Assembly (NCBI RefSeq): GCF_003334335.1
Contig: NZ_QOWQ01000005.1
Reading direction: 5' to 3' (one strand)
From: Escherichia coli
GTDB taxonomy: Bacteria > Pseudomonadota > Gammaproteobacteria > Enterobacterales > Enterobacteriaceae
DNA length: 64,000 bases
Numbering within the stretch: the first letter of the stretch is position 1; every line of letters starts with the position of its first letter. A program made the translations under genes and the position numbers. This document shows positions 5,745 to 52,272 of the stretch, one piece after another. The notes below the pieces were generated by a model, which worked only from the letters and a program-made list of their open reading frames with translations, made no database searches and was not told where the DNA came from.

Positions 5745-6563
5745 ATGAAACTGACAACACATCATCTACGGACAGGGGCCGCATTATTGCTGGCCGGAAT
5801 TCTGCTGGCAGGTTGCGACCAGAGTAGCAGCGATGCAAAACACATTAAAGTTGGCGTTATAAATGGCGCAGAACAAGATGTCGCGGAAGTCGCTAAAAAG
5901 GTGGCAAAAGAGAAATATGGCCTCGATGTTGAACTGGTAGGATTTAGCGGTTCGTTGCTACCGAACGATGCGACAAATCATGGCGAACTTGATGCGAATG
6001 TCTTCCAGCATCGACCCTTTCTTGAACAAGATAATCAGGCGCATGGTTATAAACTGGTAGCGGTGGGAAATACGTTTGTCTTCCCTATGGCGGGTTATTC
6101 CAAAAAAATCAAAACCGTGGCGCAAATAAAAGAAGGCGCGACAGTGGCGATCCCCAACGACCCGACCAACCTTGGTCGCGCACTTTTACTGTTGCAAAAA
6201 GAGAAGCTAATTACTCTGAAAGAGGGAAAAGGGTTATTACCTACCGCGCTGGATATAACCGATAATCCTCGTCATTTGCAGATTATGGAACTCGAGGGGG
6301 CGCAGCTCCCGCGCGTACTGGATGATCCCAAAGTTGATGTAGCGATTATCAGCACCACTTACATTCAGCAGACCGGGCTTTCTCCGGTGCACGACAGCGT
6401 ATTTATTGAAGATAAGAATTCGCCGTATGTGAATATTTTGGTGGCACGGGAAGATAATAAGAATGCAGAAAACGTGAAGGAATTTCTGCAATCTTATCAA
6501 TCACCCGAAGTCGCTAAAGCGGCAGAAACCATTTTTAACGGTGGCGCGGTGCCTGGCTGGTAA
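5745..6563 (+). CDS. nlpA: lipoprotein-28, methionine-binding (MetQ/NlpA) family
   Basis: 272-aa ORF; lipobox LLAGC at the end of the signal peptide; NlpA family periplasmic binding fold by sequence. Confidence 0.85.
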   Translation: MKLTTHHLRTGAALLLAGILLAGCDQSSSDAKHIKVGVINGAEQDVAEVAKKVAKEKYGLDVELVGFSGSLLPNDATNHGELDANVFQHRPFLEQDNQAHGYKLVAVGNTFVFPMAGYSKKIKTVAQIKEGATVAIPNDPTNLGRALLLLQKEKLITLKEGKGLLPTALDITDNPRHLQIMELEGAQLPRVLDDPKVDVAIISTTYIQQTGLSPVHDSVFIEDKNSPYVNILVAREDNKNAENVKEFLQSYQSPEVAKAAETIFNGGAVPGW

Positions 6564-6566
6564 TTC

Positions 6567-7490
6567 TCACTTATGCCGCGCCGGACGATTTATTTTTCTG
6601 GCGCGGCGACGGGAATCCATTGAAATCAAAATCACCGATGACAGAATCAGCAGCGTTCCCAGCCAGTCCGGTAATGTGAACGTGATCCCCAGCAACAGCA
6701 AAGAGAGTAGCGCGCTACTTAATGGTTCTGCACAGCTCAAAATGCTGGCTTTTGGACCGCCAATTAATTGTGCTCCTTTCAGGTACAGACTAAATGTCAG
6801 GGACGTACCAATGACCACCAAATAAAAAAACGCCAGAATCAAACTGCCGTTAACGACAAAGTTTGTTCCTTGTCTGGCATAAAAAGGCAACAGAATCAGA
6901 CCGCCAATCAGCATACTCCAGCCGACGACTGGTAACGTGCCATAGCGGGCAATTAGCGTTGAGGGATAGGTGGTATAGAATGCAGCAGCAAATGCCGAGG
7001 CAATGCCCCAGAACAACGCGGCAGGAGAGATCGATAATGACGTCGGATTACCGTGTGTCACCAATAAAAAAGTCCCGACCAGCGATGTCAAAATAGCGCA
7101 GAAAACCAGAATGCCCGGGCGCGATTTACGCACCAGTGAGAACCAGGCGACGATAATCGTCGGTGAGAGGAATTGCAGCACCGTTGCCGTGGCTGCGTTC
7201 GATTTTTCGATGGTTAGCAAAAAAGTGAGCTGTACAGTTAGCGCGCCAACCACGGAAAAAATCAGCAGGCTAATGGCATCTTTATGATTGTTAATAATAG
7301 AAAAGATTTTATCGCCATGAACAAATGACAGCGTCAGTAGAATCAAACCGGCGAATATCAAACGCGTCATAGTCAAAAACTGCGACGACATCTGGCTTTG
7401 CTCCATGATGTATTGCGCGCAGACCCCTGAACTTCCCCACAACACGGCGGCAATCAGAACGTTCAGCATCCCCTTTCTGGTGGAACCCAT
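6567..7490 (-). CDS. yicL: EamA/DMT-family inner membrane transporter
   Basis: 307-aa polytopic ORF with duplicated EamA-like halves. Confidence 0.75.
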
Positions 7491-7600
7491 TTTTCCCTCT
7501 GCATACTGTTTTGTCGTTTATGTATGCAGGCATGATAGCAAAAATGGCGAGGATGGCTCTGTTTGCGCCACGCCGATTTTTCTTAGCCCAGACTGGTGAG

Positions 7601-8785
7601 CTAAATATCTTTAATAAACAGCAGGCAAATCATCGCAATACCCAACATCCCTATCGCCAGCCAGAACAACGCATGGTAGCTCCAGATTTCAACCATAATT
7701 CCGTCAACAGAGCCGGCGATAATCCAGCCGACGCGTGAAGTATTTGCATATAACGTTGTCGCAGAGCCTATTTTTTCAGGCATCAAGTCCTGAAAATAAA
7801 GCATGCCGATACCACAGAGAATACCAAGGAAGATGGCATTAAGAATTTGCAATTCCAGCTCAACCGCCGGAGTCGTCGCCATGAGTACGCTGGCGTAAAA
7901 ACACATTCCACTCACGATAGCAATGAGCATTAATAGTCGCTTGCCAATACGTTTCATGTAATAGCCTGCGATTAACATCATCGGAATTTCCAGACCGGCA
8001 GCGATACCAATCATTTCTCCAGCCAGTTTATCGGTTAGATGCAGTTCATCAATAATAAATAGCGGCATATTTATCATGTAGAGATTATTCGCCGCCCACA
8101 TCATTGAACAGACCACAAAAAGTAGCCGCGTATCCCGCTTCCTGTGGGTGGAGGGTAAAATTTCTACGGGTTGGGTAACGACAGGAATATTTCTTTGTAT
8201 TGATGGCAAAAACAACCAGACTATCAGTCCGCAAACAACAAATGCGATGGCAGCGGTGAGATACATCACTTTAAAACTAAATCCCATTGCCAGTTCATAA
8301 GCGAGCGGTGGCCCGATAACCCAGGCAAGCGAGATCTGAGCACGTAAAAATGTACTGAACATGACCGTCTCACGGCCTGTTCTGTCGGCGTGTTCACGGG
8401 CGAGGGCGAACATTTGCGGGTTTGCGGTGGAAGCAAAACTACTCAGAAGTACGCCCGTTGAGAGGAGAATGAAGTAGTTGCGATTCCACGCAAAAAGCGT
8501 GCAGGCCAGCACTCCAAATAAGCAACATAGCAGAATCAGTAATTTACGGTCGCCTTGTTTATCGGAGTGCCTTGCCAGAAATTGACTGACCAGAATTCCC
8601 ATAATAGCGCTACCGGTGAAGAAAAAACCTACCATTATAGGACGGGCTTTCAGTTCATCTGCGAGGAATATACTTAGGGTAGGAGTCTGAAGAGCGCCCG
8701 CAATACCCGTCAGAAAGGCGACAAGTAAAAATGCCGCGGCAGTGAGATCAAGTATTTTTGATGGAGTGGTAGCCGTTTTTTGCAT
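7601..8785 (-). CDS. setC: MFS sugar efflux transporter (Set family)
   Basis: 394-aa 12-TM ORF, Set-family-like; adjacent to selC as in E. coli. Confidence 0.8.
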   Translation of the reverse strand: MQKTATTPSKILDLTAAAFLLVAFLTGIAGALQTPTLSIFLADELKARPIMVGFFFTGSAIMGILVSQFLARHSDKQGDRKLLILLCCLFGVLACTLFAWNRNYFILLSTGVLLSSFASTANPQMFALAREHADRTGRETVMFSTFLRAQISLAWVIGPPLAYELAMGFSFKVMYLTAAIAFVVCGLIVWLFLPSIQRNIPVVTQPVEILPSTHRKRDTRLLFVVCSMMWAANNLYMINMPLFIIDELHLTDKLAGEMIGIAAGLEIPMMLIAGYYMKRIGKRLLMLIAIVSGMCFYASVLMATTPAVELELQILNAIFLGILCGIGMLYFQDLMPEKIGSATTLYANTSRVGWIIAGSVDGIMVEIWSYHALFWLAIGMLGIAMICLLFIKDI

Positions 8786-9421
8786 TCTTCTGAATCACCG
8801 GGCGAAAAAATATAACTGAGTTACAAATAAGTACCAGTCGAATGAGTATTGTATTAAGAATTTTTGAGTATCGCTGATACAACCAGAAAGCAATGCTAGC
8901 GCAATATTATAGGGCCAGCAATTGAGATTATTAGTAAAAGCATGTTAAGAATTAATTACCGAATTTATATATTAATTATAGTAAGGCAATGAGCTATTTT
9001 TGATAGTAAAAATAAAACAAGTTGATTTGATATATTAAATGAACAAATTAATCTTGATGGCAGTCTGATTATTGGTGAAGTTTATAGTCAGTTTTTTTCG
9101 CCAGCGGTTAAAGAAATAGAATAGTCGTATAAAAAAGGGTGTTCTGGGGCGAGTAAAACAACATCTTCACCTTAATGGCGATACAGTTGGCTGAGAGTCA
9201 GCAGGGGGGCAAATCACCTGCAAATAAACACGGCGCATACTGGCGTGAATATCGCGGATGCGTTCGAGGACAGAAGAACCGACAGGCGGATTCTTCAGCC
9301 GCTCATCGTCCATCACAAAACCTTAGACCAGGTATTCCTGAAGCCGATTGAATATTGAGCAGTAGAAAATATCTGGATTGACAGTATTACAAGGGGTTGG
9401 AGAACGTCAGGAGAGGCATTT

Positions 9422-9516
9422 TGGCGGAAGATCACAGGAGTCGAACCTGCCCGGGACCGCTGGCGGCCCCAACTGGATTTGAAGTCCAGCCGCCTCACCG
9501 GAGACGACGATCTTCC
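9422..9516 (-). tRNA. selC: tRNA-Sec (selenocysteine, UCA anticodon)
   Basis: Reverse complement reads GGAAGATCGTCGTCTCCGGTGAGGCGGCTGGACTTCAAATCCAGTTGGGGCCGCCAGCGGTCCCGGGCAGGTTCGACTCCTGTGATCTTCCGCCA; long variable arm and 8-bp acceptor stem typical of tRNA-Sec. Confidence 0.9.
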
Positions 9517-9808
9517 GCGCCTCGATTGCTACATGGAGGCGGGGCGCATTATAGCTACTTCCTTGAGTTTCTACATCCCCCAGATCAGTTTTTTCCGCCT
9601 AATACACGCAGCGTATTATCACGAAAGCATTATAGTTCATATAAAATCCATATTTTACAATGATATATGAGCGGAATTAACGCTACCACGATCACATAAA
9701 ACAAGAATCATAAATTAATAACCAGATATCGGAATATTCGCTCTCACAGGGATGGTTTACAAAATGCGTTATCGGTCTCAGCACCCCTATAGCATCAAGG
9801 AAAAGTAG

Positions 9809-11191
9809 ATGAAGAGTGAAGTGTTGTCCGTTAAAGAGAAAATTGGTTATGGCATGGGAGACGCCGCCAGCCACATTATTTTCGATAACGTAATGTTATA
9901 TATGATGTTCTTTTATACCGATATTTTTGGCATTCCTGCCGGATTTGTCGGAACCATGTTTTTGGTCGCTCGTGCACTGGATGCGATTTCCGATCCTTGC
10001 ATGGGGTTGTTGGCCGATCGAACGCGCTCTCGCTGGGGTAAATTTCGTCCGTGGGTACTGTTTGGCGCACTGCCATTTGGGATCGTCTGTGTACTGGCCT
10101 ATAGCACGCCAGATCTCAGTATGAACGGAAAAATGATTTATGCAGCAATTACTTACACCCTACTTACCTTACTTTATACCGTCGTCAATATCCCTTACTG
10201 CGCATTGGGTGGTGTAATCACCAATGACCCGACTCAGCGTATCTCGCTGCAATCCTGGCGTTTTGTGCTGGCGACCGCGGGAGGCATGCTTTCTACGGTT
10301 CTGATGATGCCACTGGTTAATTTAATTGGTGGTGATAATAAACCACTCGGTTTCCAGGGTGGTATCGCGGTCCTTTCCGTGGTGGCATTCATGATGCTGG
10401 CATTCTGTTTCTTCACCACTAAAGAACGCGTTGAAGCACCACCTACAACGACGTCTATGCGGGAAGATTTACGTGATATCTGGCAAAACGACCAGTGGCG
10501 GATTGTCGGTTTACTAACCATTTTCAATATCCTGGCGGTGTGCGTACGCGGTGGAGCGATGATGTATTACGTCACATGGATTCTGGGTACGCCGGAAGTG
10601 TTTGTCGCTTTTCTCACCACTTATTGCGTGGGTAACCTGATTGGTTCCGCTCTGGCAAAACCGCTGACCGACTGGAAATGTAAAGTCACTATTTTCTGGT
10701 GGACGAACGCCCTGCTGGCAGTGATTAGCCTCGCGATGTTCTTTGTTCCCATGCAGGCCAGCATCACTATGTTTGTCTTCATCTTCGTGATTGGTGTGTT
10801 GCATCAACTGGTGACACCTATCCAGTGGGTAATGATGTCCGATACCGTCGACTACGGCGAGTGGTGCAATGGTAAACGCCTGACCGGGATCAGTTTTGCT
10901 GGCACGCTGTTTGTGCTCAAACTGGGGTTGGCCTTCGGCGGCGCTCTTATCGGCTGGATGCTGGCTTATGGCGGATATGATGCGGCAGAAAAAGCGCAGA
11001 ACAGCGCCACGATTAGCATCATTATTGCGCTATTCACGATTGTTCCGGCGATCTGTTATTTGCTGAGCGCGATTATCGCTAAACGCTACTACTCACTCAC
11101 GACGCACAATCTGAAAACCGTTATGGAACAGCTGGCCCAGGGCAAACGCCGTTGCCAGCAACAATTCACCTCTCAAGAAGTGCAGAACTAA
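9809..11191 (+). CDS. yicJ: GPH-family glycoside/cation symporter
   Basis: 460-aa polytopic ORF, melibiose/xyloside permease-like; immediately upstream of the alpha-xylosidase gene. Confidence 0.8.
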   Translation: MKSEVLSVKEKIGYGMGDAASHIIFDNVMLYMMFFYTDIFGIPAGFVGTMFLVARALDAISDPCMGLLADRTRSRWGKFRPWVLFGALPFGIVCVLAYSTPDLSMNGKMIYAAITYTLLTLLYTVVNIPYCALGGVITNDPTQRISLQSWRFVLATAGGMLSTVLMMPLVNLIGGDNKPLGFQGGIAVLSVVAFMMLAFCFFTTKERVEAPPTTTSMREDLRDIWQNDQWRIVGLLTIFNILAVCVRGGAMMYYVTWILGTPEVFVAFLTTYCVGNLIGSALAKPLTDWKCKVTIFWWTNALLAVISLAMFFVPMQASITMFVFIFVIGVLHQLVTPIQWVMMSDTVDYGEWCNGKRLTGISFAGTLFVLKLGLAFGGALIGWMLAYGGYDAAEKAQNSATISIIIALFTIVPAICYLLSAIIAKRYYSLTTHNLKTVMEQLAQGKRRCQQQFTSQEVQN

Positions 11192-23683: not shown

Positions 23684-26861
<3,178 letters not shown>

Positions 26862-39796: not shown

Positions 39797-40586
39797 ATTA
39801 GAAGAGCCACTTGCCACACTCTGGCGTGGTAAAGATGCCTTTGCAGAAGTTAAAAAACTGAATGGCGAGGTCTTCCGTGAACTGGAGACGCGTCGCACAT
39901 TACGCTTTGAACTGGCCGGCAAAAGTTATTTCCTCAAATGGCACAAAGGGACGACCCTAAAGGAGATTATAAAAAATCTGCTCTCATTGCGGATGCCCGT
40001 TTTAGGTGCAGACAGAGAGTGGCACGCTATTCATCGACTGCATGATGTCGGTGTTGATACGATGCACGGAATAGGATTTGGTGAAAAAGGGTTAAATCCA
40101 TTAACTCGCACATCATTTATTATTACCGAAGATCTCACTCCCACAATTAGCCTTGAAGATTATTGTGCAGATTGGGCGGTCAACCCGCCTGATGTACATA
40201 TTAAGCGTATGCTGATCGCGCGTGTGGCAACCATGGTGCGCAAAATGCATGCAGCAGGGATTAATCACCGTGATTGTTATATCTGCCACTTTTTACTCCA
40301 TTTGCCATTTACTGGCCGGGAAGATGAATTAAAAATTTCGGTTATCGATCTGCACCGGGCACAGATACGTGCAAAAGTACCACGTCGTTGGCGGGATAAA
40401 GATTTGATTGGTTTATATTTCTCATCAATGAATATTGGTCTGACGCAGAGAGATATCTGGCGATTTATGAAGGTTTATTTTGGGATGCCTTTACGCGATA
40501 TTTATAGACTTGAGATTGATTTACTTAAAAAGGCAAGGATTAAAGCAGGAAAAATAGAAGCAAGAACAATAAGAAAAAACTTGTAA
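39789..40586 (+). CDS. waaP: LPS core heptose(I) kinase
   Basis: 265-aa kinase-like ORF; 8-bp overlap with waaG. Confidence 0.9.
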
Positions 40587-40618
40587 ATAGTATTTTATTA
40601 CAAAAAGGGATTCTAAAA

Positions 40619-41599
40619 TTGTTGAAATATAGAAACTTCGTTGCTAAGAAGAAAAATTTATACCAAAACGAAGTGTCGTATGTTAAAAATTTACATATTG
40701 CACTATGCTTTGACCGTGAATTCATAATGCCAGCGGGTGTTGCATTATATTCAATTATATCCAACAATAGACATATTAACCTTCATTTTCACCTTCTTAT
40801 ATCAGGCATAGAAGAAAAGGAGTGTTCAGCTTTTTACGAACTAGAAGGTCCTAATACATCAATATCTGTATATTATATAACTGATAAATTTGACATTAAT
40901 CCGGATACATTAGTTCTTGGTATTCCTTTATCAACATGTTTACGTTTTTTAATCCCAGAAGTTATTGATGATAAAATAAATAAGATACTTTATCTTGACT
41001 GTGATGTCATATGTAATGGTCCTTTAGATGAACTGGTTGATTATAATTTAAATGCTGATATTGCATGTGTAATTCCAGATTCGCCAGAAATGCAAGAACG
41101 TGTAAAAAAATTAGACTATGGCATTGAGTTTATTAATTATTTTAATGCCGGGGTTATGTTTATTAATACCAGCGAATGGAAAAAAAATAATATAACACAA
41201 AAAGCGTTAGAAATGATCAACAGTGGAAAAGTATATAGGTATGCAGATCAGGATGTGCTCAATATTTTACTTAATGGACGAGTGCATTACCTTGATAAGA
41301 AGTACAATAATAAGACAACATTGTCAGTACGATGTGATGAAGAACAAAAAAACTTGCCCAACACAATTATAATGCATTATGTTACCCAGAATAAACCATG
41401 GTACAAAATATTTAGAGCACAAAATTTTGATCATTATTTTTCAAATTCTCCTTGGAAGAACCATAAAAGAAATCTAGCTCCATCATCAAGTGAGATTAGG
41501 TTAAAGTCTAAAGTTTTTTGGCTAGAAGGAAAATATTGTAAAGCCATTTCTTATTATTATAAGTATTTACTTGTTAAATTATTTGGCTTAAAGATTTAG
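40619..41599 (+). CDS. GT8-family LPS core glycosyltransferase in the slot after waaP
   Basis: 326-aa ORF with GT8 motifs YLDCDVIC (DxD) and HYVTQNKPW; very AT-rich; exact orthology (waaS-position gene versus an extra GT8 paralogue) not resolved. Confidence 0.6.
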   Translation: MLKYRNFVAKKKNLYQNEVSYVKNLHIALCFDREFIMPAGVALYSIISNNRHINLHFHLLISGIEEKECSAFYELEGPNTSISVYYITDKFDINPDTLVLGIPLSTCLRFLIPEVIDDKINKILYLDCDVICNGPLDELVDYNLNADIACVIPDSPEMQERVKKLDYGIEFINYFNAGVMFINTSEWKKNNITQKALEMINSGKVYRYADQDVLNILLNGRVHYLDKKYNNKTTLSVRCDEEQKNLPNTIIMHYVTQNKPWYKIFRAQNFDHYFSNSPWKNHKRNLAPSSSEIRLKSKVFWLEGKYCKAISYYYKYLLVKLFGLKI

Positions 41600-41612
41600 C
41601 TGGAATGAAATT

Positions 41613-42692
41613 ATGAAAATAGCCTTTATTGGCGAAGCTGTTTCTGGATTTGGCGGCATGGAAACAGTCATTCGTGATGTTATTACTACCTTCAGGCAAC
41701 AACATATCCAAAGTGAAATTTTTTTCTTTTGTCGTAATGACAAAATGGATAAGGGATGGCTGGAAGGTATTAAGTACTCGTGTTCATTTTCCAATATTCG
41801 CTTAGGTTTTTTGCGTCGCGCGAAACATATTCATGCTTTAAGCAAATGGCTTCATGATTATCAGCCAGATGTTGTTATTTGTATTGACGTGATCTCGTGT
41901 TTGTATGCGGCCAAAGCTCGTAAAAAATCGGGGATTGATGTACCTGTATTTTCATGGCCGCATTTTTCTTTAGATCATAAAAAACATGCCGAATATATCA
42001 CCTGTGCCGACTATCATTTAGCCATCAGCTCTGGTATTAAACAGCAAATGATTAGCCGGGGTGTACCAGAATCGACAATAAACGTTATTTTTAATCCCGT
42101 TGAGGCGAAAAATTCAGTCATTCCTGCACCCGGGGAAGGCGAAACGGCAACATTCATTTATGTTGGGCGCATGAAATTTGAAGGCCAAAAGCGCGTAAAA
42201 GATCTGCTTGATGGCTTATCACAAGTGCAAGGTGACTGGAAACTTCATGTATTGGGAGATGGCTCCGATTTCGAAAAATGCCAGGCTTATGGTAGAGGAT
42301 TAAATATTGATGATCGAATTGTCTGGTATGGTTGGCAACAACATCCCTGGAAATTAGTTCAGCAAGATATTAAAAAAGTGAGTGCATTATTACTCACGTC
42401 ATCTTTTGAAGGTTTCCCAATGACTCTACTTGAAGCCTTGTCGTGGGGGATCCCTTGTATCAGTGCAGATTGTGTCTCCGGGCCTGTTGATATCATTCAG
42501 CCTGATGTTAATGGTCATTTATATCAACCGGGGGATATGACCGGTTTTGTTGCTCTTCTCAATAAATACATAGCCGGTGAAATTCACATCGCACATGAAA
42601 AAATTCCGGCGTCGATCGATAAATTTTATCAACCGAAATATTACGACAGATTGCAAAAGATAATTATTTCTGTTATTTCCCGGAGGAAATAA
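41613..42692 (+). CDS. waaB: LPS core alpha-1,6-galactosyltransferase (GT4)
   Basis: 359-aa GT4 ORF; length and position match waaB. Confidence 0.8.
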   Translation: MKIAFIGEAVSGFGGMETVIRDVITTFRQQHIQSEIFFFCRNDKMDKGWLEGIKYSCSFSNIRLGFLRRAKHIHALSKWLHDYQPDVVICIDVISCLYAAKARKKSGIDVPVFSWPHFSLDHKKHAEYITCADYHLAISSGIKQQMISRGVPESTINVIFNPVEAKNSVIPAPGEGETATFIYVGRMKFEGQKRVKDLLDGLSQVQGDWKLHVLGDGSDFEKCQAYGRGLNIDDRIVWYGWQQHPWKLVQQDIKKVSALLLTSSFEGFPMTLLEALSWGIPCISADCVSGPVDIIQPDVNGHLYQPGDMTGFVALLNKYIAGEIHIAHEKIPASIDKFYQPKYYDRLQKIIISVISRRK

Positions 42693-43711
42693 TGCAGCAG
42701 GTTTTTTTCCAGGAGACTGAGTTTCTCAATTCGGTTATTGATTATAATCATAAAATAGAAGCAGAAAATCTTTGTCTGGATATTGCTTATGGGACTGACA
42801 AAAATTTTCTTTTTGGATGCGGAATATCGATTGCTTCAATATTAAAATATAATGAAGGAAATCAATTATGCTTTCATATTTTTACTGATTATTTCGGTGA
42901 TGACGATCGCAAATATTTTGATGCCCTGGCCAGGCAATATAAAACAAGAATTAAGATATATTTAATTAATGGTGATCGACTCCGTTCATTACCCTGCACC
43001 AAGAACTGGACTCATGCTATTTATTTTCGTTTTGTTATCGCCGATTACTTTTTTAATAAAGCACCCAAAGTTCTTTATCTGGATGCAGATATTATTTGTC
43101 AGGGAACTATAGAACCACTTATCAATTACACGTTTTCTGAACATACAGTCGCAATGGTTGTTACAGAAGGACAAAAAGACTGGTGGGCAAAACGTGCTCA
43201 TTCGTTAGGTGTTGCTGGGATTGCTAATGGTTACTTTAACTCCGGTTTTTTACTGATTAATACTAATCAATGGACGAATGAGCGGGTTTCTGCACGGGCC
43301 ATTGCAATGTTAAGTGATCCAGAGATAGTCAAAAAAATAACACATCCTGATCAGGATGTATTAAATATGTTATTGGCAGACAAACTTGTTTATGCTGATA
43401 TTAAATATAACACTCAGTTTAGTTTAAATTATCAACTAAAAGAAAGTTTTAAAAACCCAGTAACTAACGATACAGTTTTTATTCATTATATTGGTCCAAC
43501 TAAACCCTGGCATGACTGGGCCTGGGATTATCCAATATCACAAGCTTTTATGGCGGCAAAAAATGCTTCACCATGGAAGGATACTGCGTTATTGAAACCG
43601 GTTAATAGTAATCAATTAAGATACAGTGCTAAACATATGTTGAAAAAAAAGCAATATATCAAAGGATTTGGCAACTATCTTTTGTATTTTATAAAAAAGC
43701 TAAAGCATTAA
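42692..43711 (+). CDS. waaO: LPS outer-core GT8 glycosyltransferase (waaO/waaI type)
   Basis: 339 aa; GT8 motifs YLDADIIC and HYIGPTKPW; donor sugar specificity cannot be read from sequence. Confidence 0.7.
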   Translation: MQQVFFQETEFLNSVIDYNHKIEAENLCLDIAYGTDKNFLFGCGISIASILKYNEGNQLCFHIFTDYFGDDDRKYFDALARQYKTRIKIYLINGDRLRSLPCTKNWTHAIYFRFVIADYFFNKAPKVLYLDADIICQGTIEPLINYTFSEHTVAMVVTEGQKDWWAKRAHSLGVAGIANGYFNSGFLLINTNQWTNERVSARAIAMLSDPEIVKKITHPDQDVLNMLLADKLVYADIKYNTQFSLNYQLKESFKNPVTNDTVFIHYIGPTKPWHDWAWDYPISQAFMAAKNASPWKDTALLKPVNSNQLRYSAKHMLKKKQYIKGFGNYLLYFIKKLKH

Positions 43712-43779
43712 TACTGATAATCTATACTCTAAATAATTCGAGTTGCAGGACAAAAAGCCAGTGGCGTTTTGAGGAACGC

Positions 43780-43870
43780 TTGCGTTGGCCCTGAAATGCC
43801 GAGTAACTCGCCGATGCAGCACATGCAACTTGAAGTATAACGAGTATATAAAGTAATGATATAAGGATAG
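43780..43870 (+). repeat. possible ERIC-flank-like fragment in the waaO-waaJ spacer
   Basis: GCAGCACATGCAACTTGAAGTATAACGAGTATA resembles the flanking arm of the ERIC copy at 51001..51082; no 44-bp core present. Confidence 0.35.
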
Positions 43871-43874
43871 CCTT

Positions 43875-44891
43875 GTGAACTCATTTCCTGCCATAGAGAT
43901 AGATAAAGTTAAAGCCTGGGATTTTAGGCTTATTGATGAAAATACTGCTGAAAGTTTAAATGTTGCCTATGGTGTCGATTCCAATTATCTTGATGGTGTA
44001 GGTGTTTCCATTACTTCAATTGTCATTAATAATCGACATGTTAATCTTGATTTTTATATTATTGCTGATGTTTATAACGACGATTTCTTTCAAAAAGTTG
44101 AGAAACTTGCTGAGCAATACCAATTAAGAATCACACTTTATAGAATAAATACTGATAATCTTCAGTGCCTGCCTTGTACACAAGTCTGGTCAAGAGCAAT
44201 GTACTTCCGTTTATTTGCTTTTCAATTATTGGGAGTAACACTTAATCGTTTGCTTTATCTTGATGCCGATGTAGTTTGTAAGGGAAATATTAGTCAACTA
44301 TTGCATTTAGAGTTTAATGGAGCGGTGGCTGCAGTAGTCAGGGATGTAGACCCAATGCAGGAAAAGGCGGTAGTCAGATTATCTGATCCTGAACTTCGGG
44401 GGCAGTATTTTAATTCTGGTGTCGTTTACTTAGACCTAAAAAAATGGACAGAAGCAAAACTAACCGAAAAAGCACTGTCTATTCTTATGAGTAAAGATAG
44501 TATTTATAAGTATCCTGACCAGGACGTTATGAATGTCCTACTAAAAGGGATGACAATATTCCTGCCACGTGAGTTCAATACTATATATACAATAAAAAGT
44601 GAGTTAAAAGATAAAACGCATCAAAAATATAAAGAGTTGATAAAAGAGGATACTCTTCTTATTCATTATACTGGGGCCACCAAGCCGTGGCACAAATGGG
44701 CAATTTATCCATCGGTAAAATACTATAAAATAGCTTTAGAAAGATCCCCCTGGAAAGATGACTCACCACGAGATGCAAAATCAATTATTGAATTCAAAAA
44801 AAGATATAAACATCTGTTAGTGCAACATCATTATATCTCAGGACTCATTGCAGGAGTGTGTTATCTTTGCCGAAAATATTACCGTAAATAA
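43875..44891 (+). CDS. waaJ: LPS outer-core GT8 glycosyltransferase (waaJ/waaR type)
   Basis: 338 aa; GT8 motifs YLDADVVC and HYTGATKPW. Confidence 0.7.
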   Translation: MNSFPAIEIDKVKAWDFRLIDENTAESLNVAYGVDSNYLDGVGVSITSIVINNRHVNLDFYIIADVYNDDFFQKVEKLAEQYQLRITLYRINTDNLQCLPCTQVWSRAMYFRLFAFQLLGVTLNRLLYLDADVVCKGNISQLLHLEFNGAVAAVVRDVDPMQEKAVVRLSDPELRGQYFNSGVVYLDLKKWTEAKLTEKALSILMSKDSIYKYPDQDVMNVLLKGMTIFLPREFNTIYTIKSELKDKTHQKYKELIKEDTLLIHYTGATKPWHKWAIYPSVKYYKIALERSPWKDDSPRDAKSIIEFKKRYKHLLVQHHYISGLIAGVCYLCRKYYRK

Positions 44892-44908
44892 CATTTAACT
44901 GGTTTAAC

Positions 44909-45607
44909 ATGATTCAGAAGAATAAAATCAAAGATTTAGTTGTTTTTACCGATGAAAATAACTCAAAGTATCTCAATGTATTAAATGACTTTCTTTCTTA
45001 TGATATTAATATCATCAAAGTTTTTCGTTCTATAGATGATACAAAAGTCATGCTTATTGATACCGATTACGGTAAATTGATACTTAAAGTTTTTTCGCCT
45101 AAAGTAAAACGCAACGAACGTTTCTTTAAATCTCTTTTAAAGGGAGATTATTATGAACGCCTTTTTGAGCATACTCAAAAAGTGCGTAACGAGGGGCTAC
45201 ATTCTCTCAATGATTTTTATTTGTTGGCAGAACGGAAAACATTACGTTTTGTCCATACTTATATCATGCTTATCGAATATATCGATGGCGTAGAGTTGTG
45301 TGATATCCCCGATATTGATGAAACTTTAAAAAATAAAATTCAACAATCAATTCGTTCATTACACGAACACGGTATGGTATCTGGTGATCCTCACCGCGGT
45401 AATTTTATTATTGAAAATGGTGAAGTACGCATTATTGATCTTTCAGGAAAACGGGCATCTGCACAACGTAAAGCGAAAGATCGTATTGATTTAGAGCGAC
45501 ATTATGGTATTAAGAATGAGGTTAAAGATCTCGGTTATTATCTTTTAGTTTATCGTAAAAAAATACGTAATCTTATGCGGCGTTTGAAAGGGAAGCCAGC
45601 ACGATAA
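44909..45607 (+). CDS. waaY: LPS core heptose(II) kinase
   Basis: 232-aa kinase-like ORF; length and position match waaY. Confidence 0.75.
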   Translation: MIQKNKIKDLVVFTDENNSKYLNVLNDFLSYDINIIKVFRSIDDTKVMLIDTDYGKLILKVFSPKVKRNERFFKSLLKGDYYERLFEHTQKVRNEGLHSLNDFYLLAERKTLRFVHTYIMLIEYIDGVELCDIPDIDETLKNKIQQSIRSLHEHGMVSGDPHRGNFIIENGEVRIIDLSGKRASAQRKAKDRIDLERHYGIKNEVKDLGYYLLVYRKKIRNLMRRLKGKPAR

Positions 45608-45678
45608 AGTAAAAGTCTTACATTTAAACGTCTTCGTCAGGACATTTCTATGCGGAGTTCTTATTTCACAGGTTTATC

Positions 45679-46488
45679 ATGAAGAATATTAGATACATTG
45701 ACAAAAAAGATGTTGAAAACCTGATAGAAAGTAAAACGTCTGATGATGTTATTATTTTTCTTTCCGGCCCCGCATCGCAAAAAACACCATTGTCAGTGCT
45801 GCAGACAAGGGATGTTATTGCTGTCAATGGTTCTGCACAATATCTATTAAGTCATAATATTATTCCCTATATTTATGTACTTACCGATGTTCGCTTTTTA
45901 CATCAACGGCGTGATGATTTTTATAAATTTAGCCAGAGAAGTCGTTATACCATCGTAAATGTTGACGTTTATGAACATGCTTCTGAAGAAGATAAGCGGT
46001 ACATCCTTCAAAACTGCCTGGTACTACGTTCATTTTACCGCAGAGAAAAAGGTGGATTGATCAAGAAGATCAAGTTTAATATTTTGAGCCGAATTCATAA
46101 AGAGCTCCTGATCTCTGTACCTTTTTCTAAAAAAGGTCGTCTGGTTGGCTTTTGCAAGGATATTAACCTCGGTTATTGTTCATGCCATACCGTTGCTTTT
46201 GCTGCAATCCAAATAGCCTATTCGCTGAAGTATGCTCGTATTATCTGTTCAGGCCTTGATTTAACGGGTAGCTGTTCGCGTTTCTATGATGAAGATAAGA
46301 ATCCTATGCCCTCAGAGTTGACTCGGGATTTATTCAAAATTTTACCATTTTTCCGTTTTATGCGTGAAAATATAGAAGATATCAATATTTATAATTTATC
46401 CGACGATACTGCAATTCAATATGATATTATTCCCTATATGAAAATATCCGAAATTGAAGAGCCGTGTGTTTATGAAAAAATAAGCTAA
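45679..46488 (+). CDS. waaZ: LPS core biosynthesis protein (KdoIII-associated, WaaZ-like)
   Basis: 269-aa ORF in the waaZ position; assigned by position and composition. Confidence 0.6.
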   Translation: MKNIRYIDKKDVENLIESKTSDDVIIFLSGPASQKTPLSVLQTRDVIAVNGSAQYLLSHNIIPYIYVLTDVRFLHQRRDDFYKFSQRSRYTIVNVDVYEHASEEDKRYILQNCLVLRSFYRREKGGLIKKIKFNILSRIHKELLISVPFSKKGRLVGFCKDINLGYCSCHTVAFAAIQIAYSLKYARIICSGLDLTGSCSRFYDEDKNPMPSELTRDLFKILPFFRFMRENIEDINIYNLSDDTAIQYDIIPYMKISEIEEPCVYEKIS

Positions 46489-46540
46489 TATTTTATATGT
46501 GTTTATTACGTGTTATAAATTATATTGGAGTTGGCTAATA

Positions 46541-47683
46541 ATGATTAAAAAAATAATATTTACCGTCACACCAATATTTTCTATACCGCCAAAAGGAGCT
46601 GCAGCGGTTGAAACATGGATTTATCAGGTCGCAAAAAGACTTTCGATTCCAGTAACTATCGCCTGTATTCGAAACGAAGGTTACCCAACCTACACAAAAG
46701 TAAATGATCACTGTGATATTCACTACATTGGTTTTAGTCGAGTCTATAAACGACTTTTCCAAAAGTGGACTCGACTTGATCCTGTGCCATATTCTCAGCG
46801 TATTTTAAATACCCAACCTAAAAACACTGATCCGAAAGACTCTGTTATTGTTATCCACAATAGCATGAAGCTGTATAAACAGATTCGTAGCAGAAGCCCT
46901 CACGCGCAGCTAGTTATGCATCTTCATAATGCTTTCGAGCCAGGTGAGTTAGACAAAAATGCAAAGATAATTGTTCCTAGCCAGTTTCTTTTCGATTTCT
47001 ATTCGGAAAAAATGCCTGATGCAAATATTGCTATTGTGCCTAATGGTTTTTGTTCTGAATCGTATGAACAAAATAATACTGAAGATTTGAGGCAGAAACT
47101 GAACATTGATGCAAATGATACCGTGTTATTATTTGCAGGAAGGATATCACCAGATAAAGGTTGCCTGATGCTTATGGAGGCTTTTAATCAGCTGAATAAG
47201 ATACAAGATAACCTCAAACTGGTGATTGTCGGAGATCCTTTTGCCAGTAAAAAAGGCGAAAAAGCTGAATATCAGAAAAAAGTTCTGGATGCAGCGAAAG
47301 CTATTGGAGCGCAATGCATTATGGCGGGTGGACAGCCTCCAGAGCAGATGCATAACTATTACCGTTTAGCAGATTTAGTTGTTGTTCCTTCTCAGGTAGA
47401 AGAAGCTTTTTGTATGGTAGCTGTTGAAGCGATGGCGGCAGGTAAACCAGTGCTTGCCAGTCAAAAAGGTGGAATTAGTGAGTTTGTTCTGGAAGGAATT
47501 ACAGGCTATCACCTTGCAGAGCCTATGACATCTGAAAGTATTCTCGCGGATATTAAGCGCGTTTTGGCGGATGCTGACAGAGCTCAAATTGCTAAAAATG
47601 CCCGAAATTTTGTTTTCTCAAAATATAGCTGGGAACATGTTACTCAGCGTTTTGAAGCACAAATACAAGACTGGTTTGGTTAA
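46541..47683 (+). CDS. waaK: GT4 LPS outer-core transferase (WaaK-like, putative GlcNAc transferase)
   Basis: 380 aa from MIKKIIF, preceded by ggag; GT4 E-x7-E motif (VEEAFCMVAVEAMAAGKPV); occupies the terminal slot before waaL. Confidence 0.7.
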   Translation: MIKKIIFTVTPIFSIPPKGAAAVETWIYQVAKRLSIPVTIACIRNEGYPTYTKVNDHCDIHYIGFSRVYKRLFQKWTRLDPVPYSQRILNTQPKNTDPKDSVIVIHNSMKLYKQIRSRSPHAQLVMHLHNAFEPGELDKNAKIIVPSQFLFDFYSEKMPDANIAIVPNGFCSESYEQNNTEDLRQKLNIDANDTVLLFAGRISPDKGCLMLMEAFNQLNKIQDNLKLVIVGDPFASKKGEKAEYQKKVLDAAKAIGAQCIMAGGQPPEQMHNYYRLADLVVVPSQVEEAFCMVAVEAMAAGKPVLASQKGGISEFVLEGITGYHLAEPMTSESILADIKRVLADADRAQIAKNARNFVFSKYSWEHVTQRFEAQIQDWFG

Positions 47684-47702
47684 AAATTATTGGATTTGAA
47701 GA

Positions 47703-47738
47703 GCCTGCCTGAACTTAATGTCAGGCAGGCTTTTTTTT
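47703..47738 (+). terminator. intrinsic terminator after waaK (bidirectional, shared with convergent waaL)
   Basis: GCCTGCCTGA-acttaatg-TCAGGCAGGC perfect 10-bp stem followed by an 8-T run. Confidence 0.7.
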
Positions 47739-48954
47739 ATTTATTCCGCATTGCTAACAGTAAACCAACAATCAAGCCAATTGGTTTGAGATCAACTTCC
47801 TCGAAGTTACCTCGAATAATATAAAAGCTTACAAGCGTTAAAAATAGTAGTAATTGACCATTATAAGGAGTGACGACAACTGTTTTAAACGTTGCATTAG
47901 CTGTCTCTTTGATAATAGAGCCATACAGATAAAGTAAAGCGAGTAGTCCAGCCAAACCCGCTGCAAACCAAATTGACAAAACAACGTTGTGTGGCCCAAT
48001 GGATTGCCTGAACTTCCATGACGGAAAATCTACAACACGCTTATTATATATTGCATGGTAAATATCATCGCCGTAGCCATATCCCTTAAGAGGATTTTCC
48101 ATAATTAATGTCCACGCCGTACCTTGAGTACCATTGGTATAGCGATAAGAACTGTCGGTCTGTTGAAGTTTATAAATAAGCCTGTCTTTACCAGCATGAT
48201 CACCTTTATAGGTAAATACACCCACTGCGGCAACAGAAATAACGATGGAAGTCAGCATCAATAATTTCCACTGACGATTTAAGATTAACCATAGCAGAGT
48301 CACTATGAATACTGCCAGCCATGCACCACGAGACAGCGTTCCTAATAGCAGAAATAAGAAAACTGCACTAAAAATTACGAATGCTATTTTATAAGAGGTT
48401 TTCTTGATAAGCCAAAGGTTTAATAATGCTGGAAACAGAAACACCATTGAATCGGAAATACTACGGTGTTCATAGGTGGAAAATGGCATTATTCCTTTAT
48501 TATAATCCTGAATATAAAGAATAAGTTCAACAAGACAACGTAAGCCAAGTCCGGTAACTAATGAGTATAGTACAATTTTACCAATGCTTTCATTATCTTC
48601 ATCTTTTAATAATGCAGGTATAAGTAAACTATAGGCCAAAAATCCTTTAAGTACCGTATTACTGAATTCTTTAAAACTGATTTTCAGATCAGGTGATATA
48701 AAAGTAGCATATAAAAGAATGAGTGATAGTGCCAGGACACTATAAAAAAGATTATTTTTATAGAGTACTTTAAATGTTCCCGGAGCACGAGAAACTTGAT
48801 AGATTACCGTAATAATCATTAGTATAGATATGATGTGTTTATAACGGGTTATACCATCAAGGAAAAAGGTTGCAATAAAGAGGAATACCAACGCTTTATT
48901 CCAGTACGGTTTCCACTTTTCTTTATTACGTAGCGCCAGCGAGGCTGTTAACAT
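47737..48954 (-). CDS. waaL: O-antigen ligase
   Basis: 405-aa polytopic membrane ORF, Wzy_C-type; convergent with the waaK operon; AT-rich. Confidence 0.8.
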   Translation of the reverse strand: MLTASLALRNKEKWKPYWNKALVFLFIATFFLDGITRYKHIISILMIITVIYQVSRAPGTFKVLYKNNLFYSVLALSLILLYATFISPDLKISFKEFSNTVLKGFLAYSLLIPALLKDEDNESIGKIVLYSLVTGLGLRCLVELILYIQDYNKGIMPFSTYEHRSISDSMVFLFPALLNLWLIKKTSYKIAFVIFSAVFLFLLLGTLSRGAWLAVFIVTLLWLILNRQWKLLMLTSIVISVAAVGVFTYKGDHAGKDRLIYKLQQTDSSYRYTNGTQGTAWTLIMENPLKGYGYGDDIYHAIYNKRVVDFPSWKFRQSIGPHNVVLSIWFAAGLAGLLALLYLYGSIIKETANATFKTVVVTPYNGQLLLFLTLVSFYIIRGNFEEVDLKPIGLIVGLLLAMRNK

Positions 48955-48992
48955 TGCTTCTCCACCATCTTAAATAATATATAACGTATTAA

Positions 48993-49949
48993 TCAGGAAT
49001 TGATTTTATTAAATACCGTTTCTGCAGTCAGATGAGCAAGATCTTTATCTGGTGCCCTACAAACCACCTGATTCTTCCCATATCCGCCAATTAATCCCGG
49101 ATCGGTTGGTCCATAAACCGTGATATTCGGTCGATCCAGTGCTGCAGTTAAATGACTTAACCCAGTGTCTACCGATACCACGAATTTCGCTCCGGCCAGC
49201 ACACGGGCAACACCTTCCAGACTCATCTTCGGCAATACTTCAACATAAGCAAATCCTTCCGCCAGTCGTTTCGCCCGTTTTTCCTCATGCGGCGCACCCC
49301 ACGGAAGTTTAATGCGAATCCCTGAATCTGCCAGTAAACCAATCAATTCTCGCCAGTGTTCTTCCGGCCAGTGTTTATCATCACGGGTCGTCGCATGAAG
49401 AAATACGGCATATTCGCCAGCATCTGTAGGCAGGTTCGTCAGAAAATGCTGTGCGATAGCATAATCGCCCTGGGTTTGCGGTTTGCTATAGCCCAGACTT
49501 TTGGCAAAAAGTTCGCGGATGCGTTCTACGGCGTGCTGCTGTTTTGCAATATGATGTTTACGATTGTAAAACAGGCTGGCTAAAGGTTCGCGAGCGGTTT
49601 GCCAGTCCATTCCATGCTTTACGCCATGCGCCAGACGCGTCACCAGCGCCGCGCTTTTTACCAGCCCCTGAGCATCGATAACTGCGTCATAGTTCTCTGC
49701 TTGTAGCGCTTCACGAAACGCTTTGCGTTCAGCTTTTATGGGGGCCGAGAACCAGGCTTTACGCCAGCGACGTATTGCCACAGGAATAACTCGCTCAACG
49801 GCGGCGTGCCAGGAAGGAATCTGTGCGAACCCTTCTTCCACCACCCAGTCAAACTTAATCCCTGGGATTGCCTGCTGGGCATCAGTGAGTGCGGGCAACG
49901 TATGGAGAACATCGCCCATCGACGATGTTTTAACGATCAAAACCCGCAT
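48993..49949 (-). CDS. waaC: LPS heptosyltransferase I (GT9)
   Basis: 318-aa GT9 ORF MRVLIVKTSSMGDVLH. Confidence 0.9.
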   Translation of the reverse strand: MRVLIVKTSSMGDVLHTLPALTDAQQAIPGIKFDWVVEEGFAQIPSWHAAVERVIPVAIRRWRKAWFSAPIKAERKAFREALQAENYDAVIDAQGLVKSAALVTRLAHGVKHGMDWQTAREPLASLFYNRKHHIAKQQHAVERIRELFAKSLGYSKPQTQGDYAIAQHFLTNLPTDAGEYAVFLHATTRDDKHWPEEHWRELIGLLADSGIRIKLPWGAPHEEKRAKRLAEGFAYVEVLPKMSLEGVARVLAGAKFVVSVDTGLSHLTAALDRPNITVYGPTDPGLIGGYGKNQVVCRAPDKDLAHLTAETVFNKINS

Positions 49950-49952
49950 CCG

Positions 49953-50999
49953 TCAGGCTTCCTCTTGTAACAATAGAGAGTTGAGTTCTTCCAGCACGCG
50001 CTGGGGAGTAATGTCGATCAAGCTCTGGTGATAACCTTCTGCGGCGTCGCCTTTGCGTACTTTGTGATAGCCGGTAATCAGGCGGATCACGCGCGCTTTA
50101 TGGGATAGCGGCGGTGTGAAGTCCGGGCTACTCGGACCATACAGGGCAACCAGCGGACGATTGAGCGCCGCCGCAACGTGCATCAGGCCAGAATCGTTAG
50201 TGACAATGGCTTTACAGGCTGCAATCAGGATAACCGCTTGATCAAGCTGTGTTTCCCCCGCCAGGTTCCGGCACCATGCCTGCTGCTCGGTATTTAAAGC
50301 GGCAAGAATCTCATTGCCCGCTTCATGATCTTTCGCCGAGCCAAACAGAACCACTTGATAACCTTCATCAATCAGTTGCTTTGCCAGTTCCGCATAGTGG
50401 TAGTGTGGCCAGCGTTTTGCCGGACCAAACTCCGCACCCGGGCAAAAACCAATCATTGGACGTTCTGATGAAAGCGAAAATTGATTACAGGTATATGATT
50501 TTTCACCTTCGCTCACCTGCAACTGCGGCCATAACAATGGCTGCGGCAGATCTTGTGCGGTACGCATAATACCTTTGTCATAGGCCAGCGCCACATAGCG
50601 TTCCACCATCAGCGGCCAGGCTTCTTTATCCAGCACACGCACATCGTTGAGTAAACCGTAGCGCATTTCGCCGCGCCAGCCGGTGCGATGAGGAATACCC
50701 GCGAAGAAAGGCACTAATGCGGATTTGAAGGAGTTGGGTAAAACGTAGGCGCGGTCGTAACGTTTTTCGCGCAGGCTATGACCCAGCTTGCGGCGTTCGC
50801 CAATTTCCAGCGCCCCGTGACCAAGCGGCATAGGAATGGCTTCGTTAACTTCCGGCATCCGCGATAATAATGGACGGCACCATGCCGGTGCCATCACGTC
50901 GATTATCGCCTGGGGATAGCGCGCCTGGAGCGTGCGATAGAGACTTTGCGACATCATCATGTCGCCAACCCATGACGGGCCGATCACCAATATTTTCAT
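49953..50999 (-). CDS. waaF: LPS heptosyltransferase II (GT9)
   Basis: 348-aa GT9 ORF MKILVIGPSWVGDMMM. Confidence 0.9.
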   Translation of the reverse strand: MKILVIGPSWVGDMMMSQSLYRTLQARYPQAIIDVMAPAWCRPLLSRMPEVNEAIPMPLGHGALEIGERRKLGHSLREKRYDRAYVLPNSFKSALVPFFAGIPHRTGWRGEMRYGLLNDVRVLDKEAWPLMVERYVALAYDKGIMRTAQDLPQPLLWPQLQVSEGEKSYTCNQFSLSSERPMIGFCPGAEFGPAKRWPHYHYAELAKQLIDEGYQVVLFGSAKDHEAGNEILAALNTEQQAWCRNLAGETQLDQAVILIAACKAIVTNDSGLMHVAAALNRPLVALYGPSSPDFTPPLSHKARVIRLITGYHKVRKGDAAEGYHQSLIDITPQRVLEELNSLLLQEEA

Positions 51000-51000
51000 T

Positions 51001-51082
51001 CACTTCATCCTTCAAGCTGTCTCTGCGGCGGCTGCCTGCGTTCACTCCGGTCACTTACTTTTGTAAGCTCCCGGAGATTCAC
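51001..51082 (-). repeat. ERIC (IRU) repetitive element at the hldD/waaF junction
   Basis: Minus strand reads GTGAATCtCCgGGAGCTTACAaAAGTAAGTGACcGGaGTGAaCG, matching the ERIC core (ERIC1R and ERIC2 primer regions) at about 39 of 44 positions. Confidence 0.75.
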
Positions 51083-52059
51083 TTAGTTGCTGCCTTGATA
51101 CTGCTCGAATGATTTTGTGAATTTACGTTGATGTCGCGATTCAGCCAGGCCATGTATTCCGTTACGCCTTCGGCAACGGTTTTGAACGGTTTGTCATAAC
51201 CCGCCGCGCGCAGATTCGTCAGATCTGCCTGCGTGAATGCCTGATAGCGGCCTTTCAGTTTATCCGGGAACGGAATGTATTCGATCTGGCCTTTCTTGTG
51301 ATAAGCAAGCGTTGCATCGGCTACCGCCTGGAAGGATTCCGCACGACCAGTACCGAGGTTGAAGATGCCGGAAACGCCATTTTCCAGGAACCACAGGTTT
51401 ACATCTGCCACGTCGCCAACATAGACGAAGTCGCGTTTAAAGTTCTCGCTACCTTCGAACAGTTTCGGTGATTCACCGTTATTAAGCTGGGTGTTGAGAT
51501 GGAAAGCGACGCTCGCCATGCTGCCTTTATGGCCTTCACGCGGTCCATAAACGTTGAAATAACGGAAGCCAACAATCTGTGAGTTTGCTTCCGGCAGAAT
51601 TTGACGAACATATTCATCAAACAGGAATTTCGAGTAACCGTAGACGTTCAACGGTTTTTCGTACTCGCGGGATTCAATAAAGTCGGAAGTGCGACCGCCG
51701 TAAGTGGCTGCGGATGAAGCGTACAGGAACGGGATTTCACGCTCCAGGCAGTAGTGCAGCAGCTCCTTGGAGTATTGATAGTTGTTATCCATCATATACT
51801 TGCCGTCCCACTCGGTGGTGGAAGAGCACGCGCCTTCGTGGAAAATCGCTTCGACATCGCCGAACTCTTCGCCAGCCATAATCTGGATCAGGAAGTCTTC
51901 CTTATCCATATAGTCTGCGATATTCAGGTCCACCAGGTTCACAAACTTGGTGCCGTCTTTCAGGTTGTCCACCACCAGAATATCGGTGATGCCTTTGTCA
52001 TTCAGGGCTTTAACGATGTTGCTGCCGATAAAGCCCGCGCCGCCGGTAACGATGATCAT
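51079..52059 (-). CDS. hldD: ADP-L-glycero-D-manno-heptose 6-epimerase, with a variant C-terminal tail
   Basis: 326 aa; Rossmann motif [11 protein letters not shown]; after ...WLNRD the ORF continues [17 protein letters not shown] and its stop codon lies inside an ERIC repeat. Confidence 0.9.
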
Positions 52060-52272
52060 AACTGTAACCTTCGAATTGTGGAGTCAGAGACAATCTCAGA
52101 CACGAATACTTCTATCATATCACTACACGGCGCTGGCTACAGCCATTCACCGAAAGTGGTATGCCTGAGCGTGATTTATGCTTATTTTTTGACAAGTACA
52201 AATGCTTCATCTCGTATCAACCTATGGCTTTCGGTAATATGTGCTGAAATTTGCCCAGTCTGGAGAATCGCG

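Follow-up and report, generated by a model that had tools for sequence, protein, structure and literature searches.

An intact, unoccupied attachment site beside an old rhuM scar in the K-12-type selC-setC region of an Escherichia coli genome

The DNA analyzed here, referred to as the window, is a stretch of 64,000 nucleotides from Escherichia coli. ARAGORN identified one tRNA gene in the window, an intact selC encoding tRNA-Sec with the anticodon UCA, and the same gene was recognized by the Rfam model RF01852 at 83.8 bits (gathering score 47). selC lies on the minus strand with its 3' end at position 9422, and the 3' end therefore points towards lower coordinates, into the spacer that separates selC from setC. 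The product of setC is a sugar efflux transporter of the MFS superfamily. Further features were delimited within and around the spacer, and the locus is composed as follows.

6567-7490, minus strand: yicL, beyond setC
7601-8785, minus strand: setC, an ORF of 394 amino acids matched by the NCBIfam sugar efflux transporter model TIGR00899 at 646.7 bits (cut-off 522.3)
7520-9406, no strand assigned: lineage-variable segment of 1.9 kb, from 15 nt beyond selC to 29 nt upstream of yicL
8786-9421: selC-setC spacer, 636 bp
8786-9175, no strand assigned: AT-rich segment of 390 bp with 31% GC, delimited by composition, with partial homology to the setC upstream region of E. albertii
9176-9344, minus strand: rhuM pseudogene fragment of 169 nt, equal to yicT, recognized by tblastn, Pfam, PGAP, and the MG1655 annotation
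9345-9421, minus strand: leader of 77 nt, to judge by homology probably what is left of the 5' UTR of an ancestral selC-adjacent rhuM gene
9407-9445, minus strand: att-core region, comprising the last 24 nt of selC and the 15 nt downstream (AAATGCCTCTCCTGA), in single copy
9422-9516, minus strand: tRNA-Sec gene selC, intact

On the side opposite the spacer, selC is flanked by yicJ and yicI. The positions of selC (9422-9516) and setC (7601-8785) and the 636-bp distance between them agree with the original prediction, which had described about 640 bp of AT-rich, non-coding DNA. The spacer is not purely non-coding, however, since 9176-9344 is the rhuM fragment (yicT).

The window is E. coli but not K-12, with 98.5% identity to MG1655 over positions 1-40496 and a different waa core locus. 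In this waa (LPS core) locus, at 40400-52200, parts are 86-88% identical to MG1655 and others are unmatched. The region is 100% identical to that of strains such as 65COLEC, including a gene annotated as 'lipopolysaccharide N-acetylglucosaminyltransferase', and the window's version was covered to at least 80% in 501 of 5426 genomes. Over 7401-9600, a single mismatch to MG1655 was found, at 8023 within setC, and the spacer and selC are thus identical to those of MG1655; the comparison with the K-12 selC-setC spacer proposed along with the original prediction returned identity base for base. That prediction had also read the locus as commensal-like. We consider the term unsafe, since the spacer was covered to at least 80% in 3619 of the 5426 complete E. 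coli genomes, many of them 100% identical, many of the listed examples come from human hosts, and other hotspots lie out of view.

Insertions at or near the locus were observed in several other E. coli. In strains SW071611 and CX08, an annotated IS1 transposase gene splits the spacer match in two, and in strain Z142-6 (locus L135, 6056-8500) two IS1 copies bracket an integrase arm-domain fragment, replacing most of the spacer. Elsewhere in this neighborhood, O157:H7 strain Z910 (locus L131, 1505-2165) has a RelE/ParE toxin gene and an HTH gene between yicN and nepI, neither of which is annotated in the corresponding interval of MG1655.

Islands at selC are bounded by repeats of the tRNA 3' end of 16 bp (TTCGACTCCTGTGATC) and up to 24 bp (PMC6174562). 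A search of the whole window with the 16-mer TTCGACTCCTGTGATC, allowing up to three mismatches, returned no copy outside selC except a chance-level site with three mismatches at 26226. At 26225-26244, 17 of 20 bases agree with the selC T-arm, but this resemblance was dismissed as chance level, with 3 of 100 shuffles reaching at least two matches. Gapped local alignment of a 46-nt att probe over the interval from selC to yicL gave a best score of 16 outside the probe's own location, against a mean best score of 17.5 and a maximum of 26 for the shuffles, and the same alignment revealed no distal repeat of the selC end between setC and yicL. As a positive control, this probe detected the attR of strain LF82 at a score of 45. 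The att core at 9407-9445, which the LF82-type arrangement shares and which recurs as attR in occupied strains, is present once in the window, and the site is therefore an unoccupied attB.

We then searched for integrase genes. Six-frame translations of the spacer matched no NCBIfam family at E ≤ 1. A tblastn search of the whole window with five P4-type integrases encoded adjacent to selC in other species yielded noise only (E > 0.5) and nothing in the spacer; two of the five queries were checked against NCBIfam, and both matched the integrase domain model NF007246. The survey of other species covered 120 selC loci, with a set of 95 representative loci having at least 1.2 kb after selC, and a P4-type integrase gene starting 154-300 nt after selC on the same strand was present in 33 of the 95. 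No cargo genes were found between selC and setC, and the only ORF there is that of the rhuM fragment. With neither an att repeat nor an integrase, the window is without an island of the integrase type, and its att core is single and intact. The absence of an integrase, of a direct repeat of the selC 3' end, and of cargo genes had all been predicted and was in each case confirmed. To judge by its sequence, the 3' end of selC is undamaged, and selC-specific integrases should still be able to use it.

The occupied state could be examined in relatives. In E. coli CE10 and GN03551, the K-12-type spacer is preceded not by selC but by island DNA ending in an attR copy. The attR of CE10 (TTCGACTCCTGTGATCCCTTCCGCCA...) reads TTCGACTCCTGTGATCCCTTCCGCCAAAATGCC..., and CE10 carries the TTTGGGGGTTCTTATGGGGGT motif that has been reported for selC islands (PMC6174562). 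Copies of attR were seen in LF82, E. albertii, CE10, and GN03551, where they precede the spacer, whereas in the window a complete selC abuts a spacer of the K-12 type; the hotspot is thus unoccupied by an island of the integrase type, as the original prediction had it. In O157:H7, the LEE stands in place of the spacer and of all but 174 nt of setC. A synthetic query joining the two flanks detected a bare selC-yicL junction, with flanks within about 660 bp, in none of the 5426 E. coli genomes. Three features allow the absence of an island at selC to be scored reliably: the att core occurs once, no integrase lies at +150 to +300, and selC is directly adjoined by the K-12 leader.

The LF82 type, found in B2 strains, has an intact rhuM (345 amino acids) that begins 52 nt after selC and is followed by a degenerate selC-end repeat (CGACTCCTGTGATC----GCCAAAATGCCTCT). 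In the LF82 locus (L003), this B2-type cassette spans 6187-8465 with the degenerate attR repeat at 7252-7279. Beyond attR lie a second, older rhuM remnant and then an AT-rich hypothetical gene of 165 amino acids, and setC is absent. In E. albertii, the order is selC, an integrase pseudogene, an ORF, an intact rhuM, attR, the K-12-type leader, setC, and yicL, and the integrase pseudogene is of the P4 type and truncated at its N terminus. This compact selC element occupies 6710-9608 of locus L127 and was also seen in locus L128. In another E. albertii strain, this element is preceded by one more island, which carries AlpA and GTPase-like genes and is set off by a further repeat; the stacking amounts to tandem accretion at selC.

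The original prediction had allowed that the AT-rich stretch could be a remnant of foreign DNA. No mobile-element homology was detected in that stretch; the real remnant lies outside it, in the GC-normal part of the spacer at 9176-9344. Residues 121-187 of the 345-residue LF82 RhuM aligned by tblastn to positions 9343-9176 with 41 identities over 67 residues (E 2e-17), and the Pfam family PF13310 (Virulence_RhuM) matched the fragment over model positions 50-98 of 252 with an independent E value of 1.3e-9. Both termini are missing, an in-frame TAA interrupts the frame, and eight codons are deleted internally. The sequence, disabled by two deletions and the stop codon, matches the family profile, but with 67 of 345 codons, broken, in place of an intact ORF of about 345 amino acids, it is a pseudogene fragment rather than a functional member of the RhuM family. 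The fragment is already catalogued. Pseudogene yicT of MG1655 (b4653; 3836425-3836556) corresponds to 9182-9313 of the window, and PGAP annotates the identical spacer of strain S3 with a pseudogene described as 'rhuM, RhuM family protein, internal stop, incomplete'.

Among four E. coli spacer variants with mutual identities of 93.7-100%, the deletion junctions of the rhuM fragment are all identical. The TAA is confined to the lineage of the window and K-12, and CE10 instead has a 1-nt deletion that shifts the frame. Shared junctions together with lineage-specific stop and frameshift mutations indicate that the truncation is old and that the frame has since drifted without constraint. No intact rhuM of this older layer was found among complete E. 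coli genomes at megablast sensitivity.

A position directly after selC is typical of rhuM. Of the 95 species loci, 20 have RhuM-like sequence on the selC strand no more than 3.5 kb beyond the tRNA gene, and in ten of these it is full length; Proteus, Morganella, Yersinia, Erwinia, Enterobacter, and Pseudescherichia are among the genera represented. rhuM is also a gene of the Salmonella selC island SPI-3 (PMC3680342). Given this habitual position of the gene, the decayed rhuM in the spacer marks the site as bearing an old scar. The selC locus of the window is an intact, currently unoccupied attB beside that scar, an arrangement that is ordinary and already known. The intact RhuM protein matches the PADLOC candidate defence family PDC-S05 (E 3e-173), and a preprint reports that a PDC-S05 representative protects against phages T7, T5, and T4, with plating of T7 and T5 lowered about 1000-fold. 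The fragment in the window cannot give phage protection of the PDC-S05 type.

In the same survey of other species, a degenerate copy of the selC end (GCGACTTCTGTGAG) was observed in Salmonella enterica subsp. arizonae (locus L093) about 115 nt downstream of selC, at about +105 to +125, which suggests that two att copies enclose a tiny remnant there. No similarity to RhuM, SetC, or YicL was found within the 3.3 kb available of that locus.

The leader between selC and the rhuM fragment was compared with relatives. Past the 15 nt shared with the LF82 type, the remaining 62 nt aligned strongly with the DNA that follows selC in E. whittamii (L094; z 14.6) and in a divergent genome of the E. coli clade (L039; z 15.0), short comparators that provided 402 and 117 nt downstream of selC, respectively. 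The leader of E. whittamii leads to the start codon of a rhuM that breaks off after 14 rhuM-like codons. In E. albertii, the same leader stands behind attR with a trace of the rhuM start. A descent of the leader from the attL arm of an integrase island was also tried and rejected, local alignment to 12 such arms giving z ≤ 3.1 against about 15 for E. whittamii and L039.

The remaining part of the spacer is AT-rich, as had been noticed for about 8.85-9.15 kb. GC content is 31% over 8786-9175, with a minimum of 22.7% in 8950-9099, and rises to 53% over 9176-9344 and 40% over 9345-9421, so that AT-richness is confined to the setC-proximal part and the selC-proximal 246 bp have 40-53% GC. The window as a whole has 49% GC; the 390 bp at 31% are partly common to E. 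albertii and behave like a promoter region. The DNA upstream of setC in E. albertii can be aligned with positions 8853-9073 at a z of 6.1, a modest value measured against mononucleotide shuffles, and this homology indicates that the stretch predates the split of the two species. For 9074-9175, a relative was not detected in the comparisons made. Across E. coli lineages, the AT-rich stretch is 93-100% conserved with identical boundaries. The AT-rich part was unmatched in the LF82 cassette and in the 120 other-species selC loci, and its alignment with the DNA upstream of setC in a metagenomic Escherichia-like contig gave a z of -0.5.

When plasmids and phages were searched with the spacer in a distant mode, only misfiled E. 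coli DNA and rhuM genes were returned, and the AT-rich part was otherwise unmatched. The misfiled records include those of Campylobacter phages A18a (MG065686.1, 68924-69559) and A11a (MG065691.1, 104564-105199), in which the E. coli selC-setC spacer is present at 100% identity; in these unannotated records it looks like E. coli DNA that entered by contamination or chimeric assembly. Three PLSDB 'plasmids' of 1.0-4.9 Mb (NZ_OL790696.1, NZ_CP141089.1, and CP061233.1) carry the chromosomal selC-setC spacer and are apparently chromosomes, whole or in part, that were deposited as plasmids.

Genomic SELEX has placed in vitro binding peaks of the sigma-S and sigma-32 holoenzymes in the spacer between selC and setC (PMC5493296). 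By our conversion from the older K-12 coordinates, these peaks fall at about 8905 and 8807 of the window. A consensus scan of the spacer for sigma-70 promoters and terminators found fewer promoter-like sites than in shuffles and nothing on the minus strand, which is that of setC. As the scan yielded no minus-strand promoter, the assignment of a setC promoter to this DNA is based on in vitro SELEX and converted coordinates. A search of 7400-9900 against Rfam at E ≤ 1 returned, besides tRNA-Sec, only a chance group II intron fragment inside setC. The partial homology to E. albertii and the RNA polymerase binding peaks make it most likely that the AT-rich segment is old DNA of the setC upstream and promoter region rather than a recent foreign remnant.

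The spacer and setC together vary between lineages. By blastn, homology of the window to LF82 was limited to 9407-9600 and 7401-7519, with different DNA between. Since the homology ends at 9407 and resumes at 7519, 29 nt upstream of yicL, the segment 7520-9406, including setC, is lineage-variable, and its K-12-type content is the leader, the rhuM fragment, the AT-rich DNA, and setC. Other E. coli lineages have different DNA in place of this segment and thus of setC: the gene was covered to at least 80% in 3722 of the 5426 genomes, is absent from the LF82 type, and in O157:H7 has shrunk to 174 nt next to the LEE. SetB reaches 72-73% in the comparison with SetC, and of the best 120 homologues, the named ones above that level are all from E. 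coli (99%) or E. albertii (about 90%). No SetC-like sequence was found downstream of selC in the 120 loci of other species, some of which are short. The GC content of setC is 46%, compared with 49% for the window. The metagenomic Escherichia-like contig retains setC-yicL synteny with selC outside its view and is uninformative either way.

We regard it as highly probable that the region is a standard selC-setC region of the K-12 type, in which an intact, unoccupied att site lies beside an old rhuM scar. On this account, the common ancestor of E. coli and E. albertii would have had the order selC, leader, intact rhuM, setC, and yicL, an ancestral state reconstructed from few genomes. The old rhuM would then have decayed independently in each lineage, with E. 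coli keeping codons 121-187, E. whittamii the first 14 codons, and E. albertii a trace of the start. The fragment in the window would now be inert, and the AT-rich part would serve as the promoter region of setC. In other strains and species, later elements would have inserted at the att core, displacing the old layer to a position behind attR. These later arrivals would include an int-orf-rhuM element and larger islands; the LEE of O157:H7 also occupies this interval.

Several other explanations were weighed against this one. That the site is an attB which never held foreign genes, with plain ancestral intergenic DNA for a spacer, would fit the joint absence of integrase, repeat, and cargo and the identity with K-12. 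It is scarcely credible, however, given that 9176-9344 is recognizable as part of a 345-amino-acid gene at E values (2e-17 and 1.3e-9) that make chance very unlikely, that in LF82, E. albertii, and ten loci of other species an intact rhuM directly follows selC, and that no E. coli genome searched has the bare selC-yicL junction. We give as little credence to the proposal that the rhuM fragment has been kept for a function, either as a small protein from the 49-codon ORF at 9167-9316 or as a regulatory RNA for setC. The GTG start of that ORF and the constant boundaries of the fragment in the four E. coli variants could be cited for it, but the frame is unprotected, with the TAA in one lineage and the 1-nt deletion in CE10, and substitutions are spread as in the flanking non-coding DNA. 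Moreover, no Rfam family matches, both MG1655 and PGAP annotate a pseudogene, and the sequence is dispensed with where IS1-bracketed DNA replaces most of the spacer (Z142-6) or the LEE replaces the whole segment (O157:H7). It is improbable, if somewhat less so, that the AT-rich DNA at 8.85-9.15 kb is the stump of a separate and more recent mobile element. Its 31% GC in a window of 49%, the lack of a homolog in the 120 other-species selC loci, and the stretch without a relative at 9074-9175 would be expected of such a stump. Repeats, integrase, and transposase are nevertheless absent, the plasmid and phage matches are confined to E. coli DNA, the alignment of 8853-9073 upstream of setC in E. 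albertii and the 93-100% conservation in E. coli speak for older DNA, and the RNA polymerase binding peaks fit a promoter region (PMC5493296).

A larger possibility, which we hold tentatively and think rather less probable than its opposite, is that the whole 1.9-kb segment of leader, rhuM fragment, AT-rich DNA, and setC was delivered to selC as an ancient islet whose attR has since eroded. The segment extends from 15 nt past selC to within 29 nt of yicL and is swapped in LF82-type strains, rhuM rides an integrase-bounded element in E. albertii and LF82, SetC-like sequence does not follow selC in the 120 other-species loci (some short), the named proteins closer to SetC than SetB is, among the best 120 homologues, come from E. 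coli and E. albertii only, and setC differs in GC content from the window (46% versus 49%). Against it, no distal repeat was found between setC and yicL, the likeness of the leader to attL arms is at chance (z ≤ 3.1), and the GC deviation of setC is small. A related and equally speculative idea is that rhuM is the signature cargo of small, selC-specific int-orf-rhuM elements that have repeatedly colonized tRNA-Sec across the Enterobacterales, in which case yicT, and possibly the whole segment from leader to setC, might be the fossil of the first such arrival in Escherichia. If so, the 'empty' selC of K-12 would be an anciently occupied defence islet with an eroded far boundary.

Returning to the standard K-12-type region with its rhuM scar, the main value of the analysis lies in a correct annotation, as the locus has the textbook K-12 arrangement. 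An unoccupied hotspot is not the same as blank ancestral DNA, and this one records an earlier occupancy by a suspected phage-defence gene family.

The locus may be compared with four known systems. In SPI-3 of Salmonella, the genes after selC are sugR, rhuM, rmbA, misL, fidL, marT, slsA, cigR, mgtB, and mgtC, and Blanc-Potard et al. reportedly described in 1999 that rhuM adjoins selC. As in SPI-3, rhuM-family sequence lies directly downstream of selC on the same strand in the window; the window has a fragment only, followed by setC and yicL, and sugR, misL, marT, and mgtCB cannot fit into 636 bp. The mini-element of LF82/B2 strains and E. albertii (int'-orf-rhuM, bounded by attL and attR) shares its gene family and its tRNA with the window, but there an intact rhuM is bracketed by a degenerate selC-end repeat, whereas the window has the older, decayed layer only. 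The P4-type islands at selC, including the LEE, PAI I536, SHI-2, EPI-I, GIselC, and the retronphage phiR73, use the attachment site that is present in the window (TTCGACTCCTGTGATC...). Unlike the window, they carry an integrase gene at a distance of about 150-300 nt from selC and end distally in a repeat of 16-24 bp. In E. coli K-12 MG1655, the selC-yicT-setC locus (b3658, b4653, b3659) has the gene order and the 636-bp spacer of the window with zero base differences; the two genomes differ elsewhere, at 98.5% identity over 40 kb and in the waa core, and at the locus itself they are the same.
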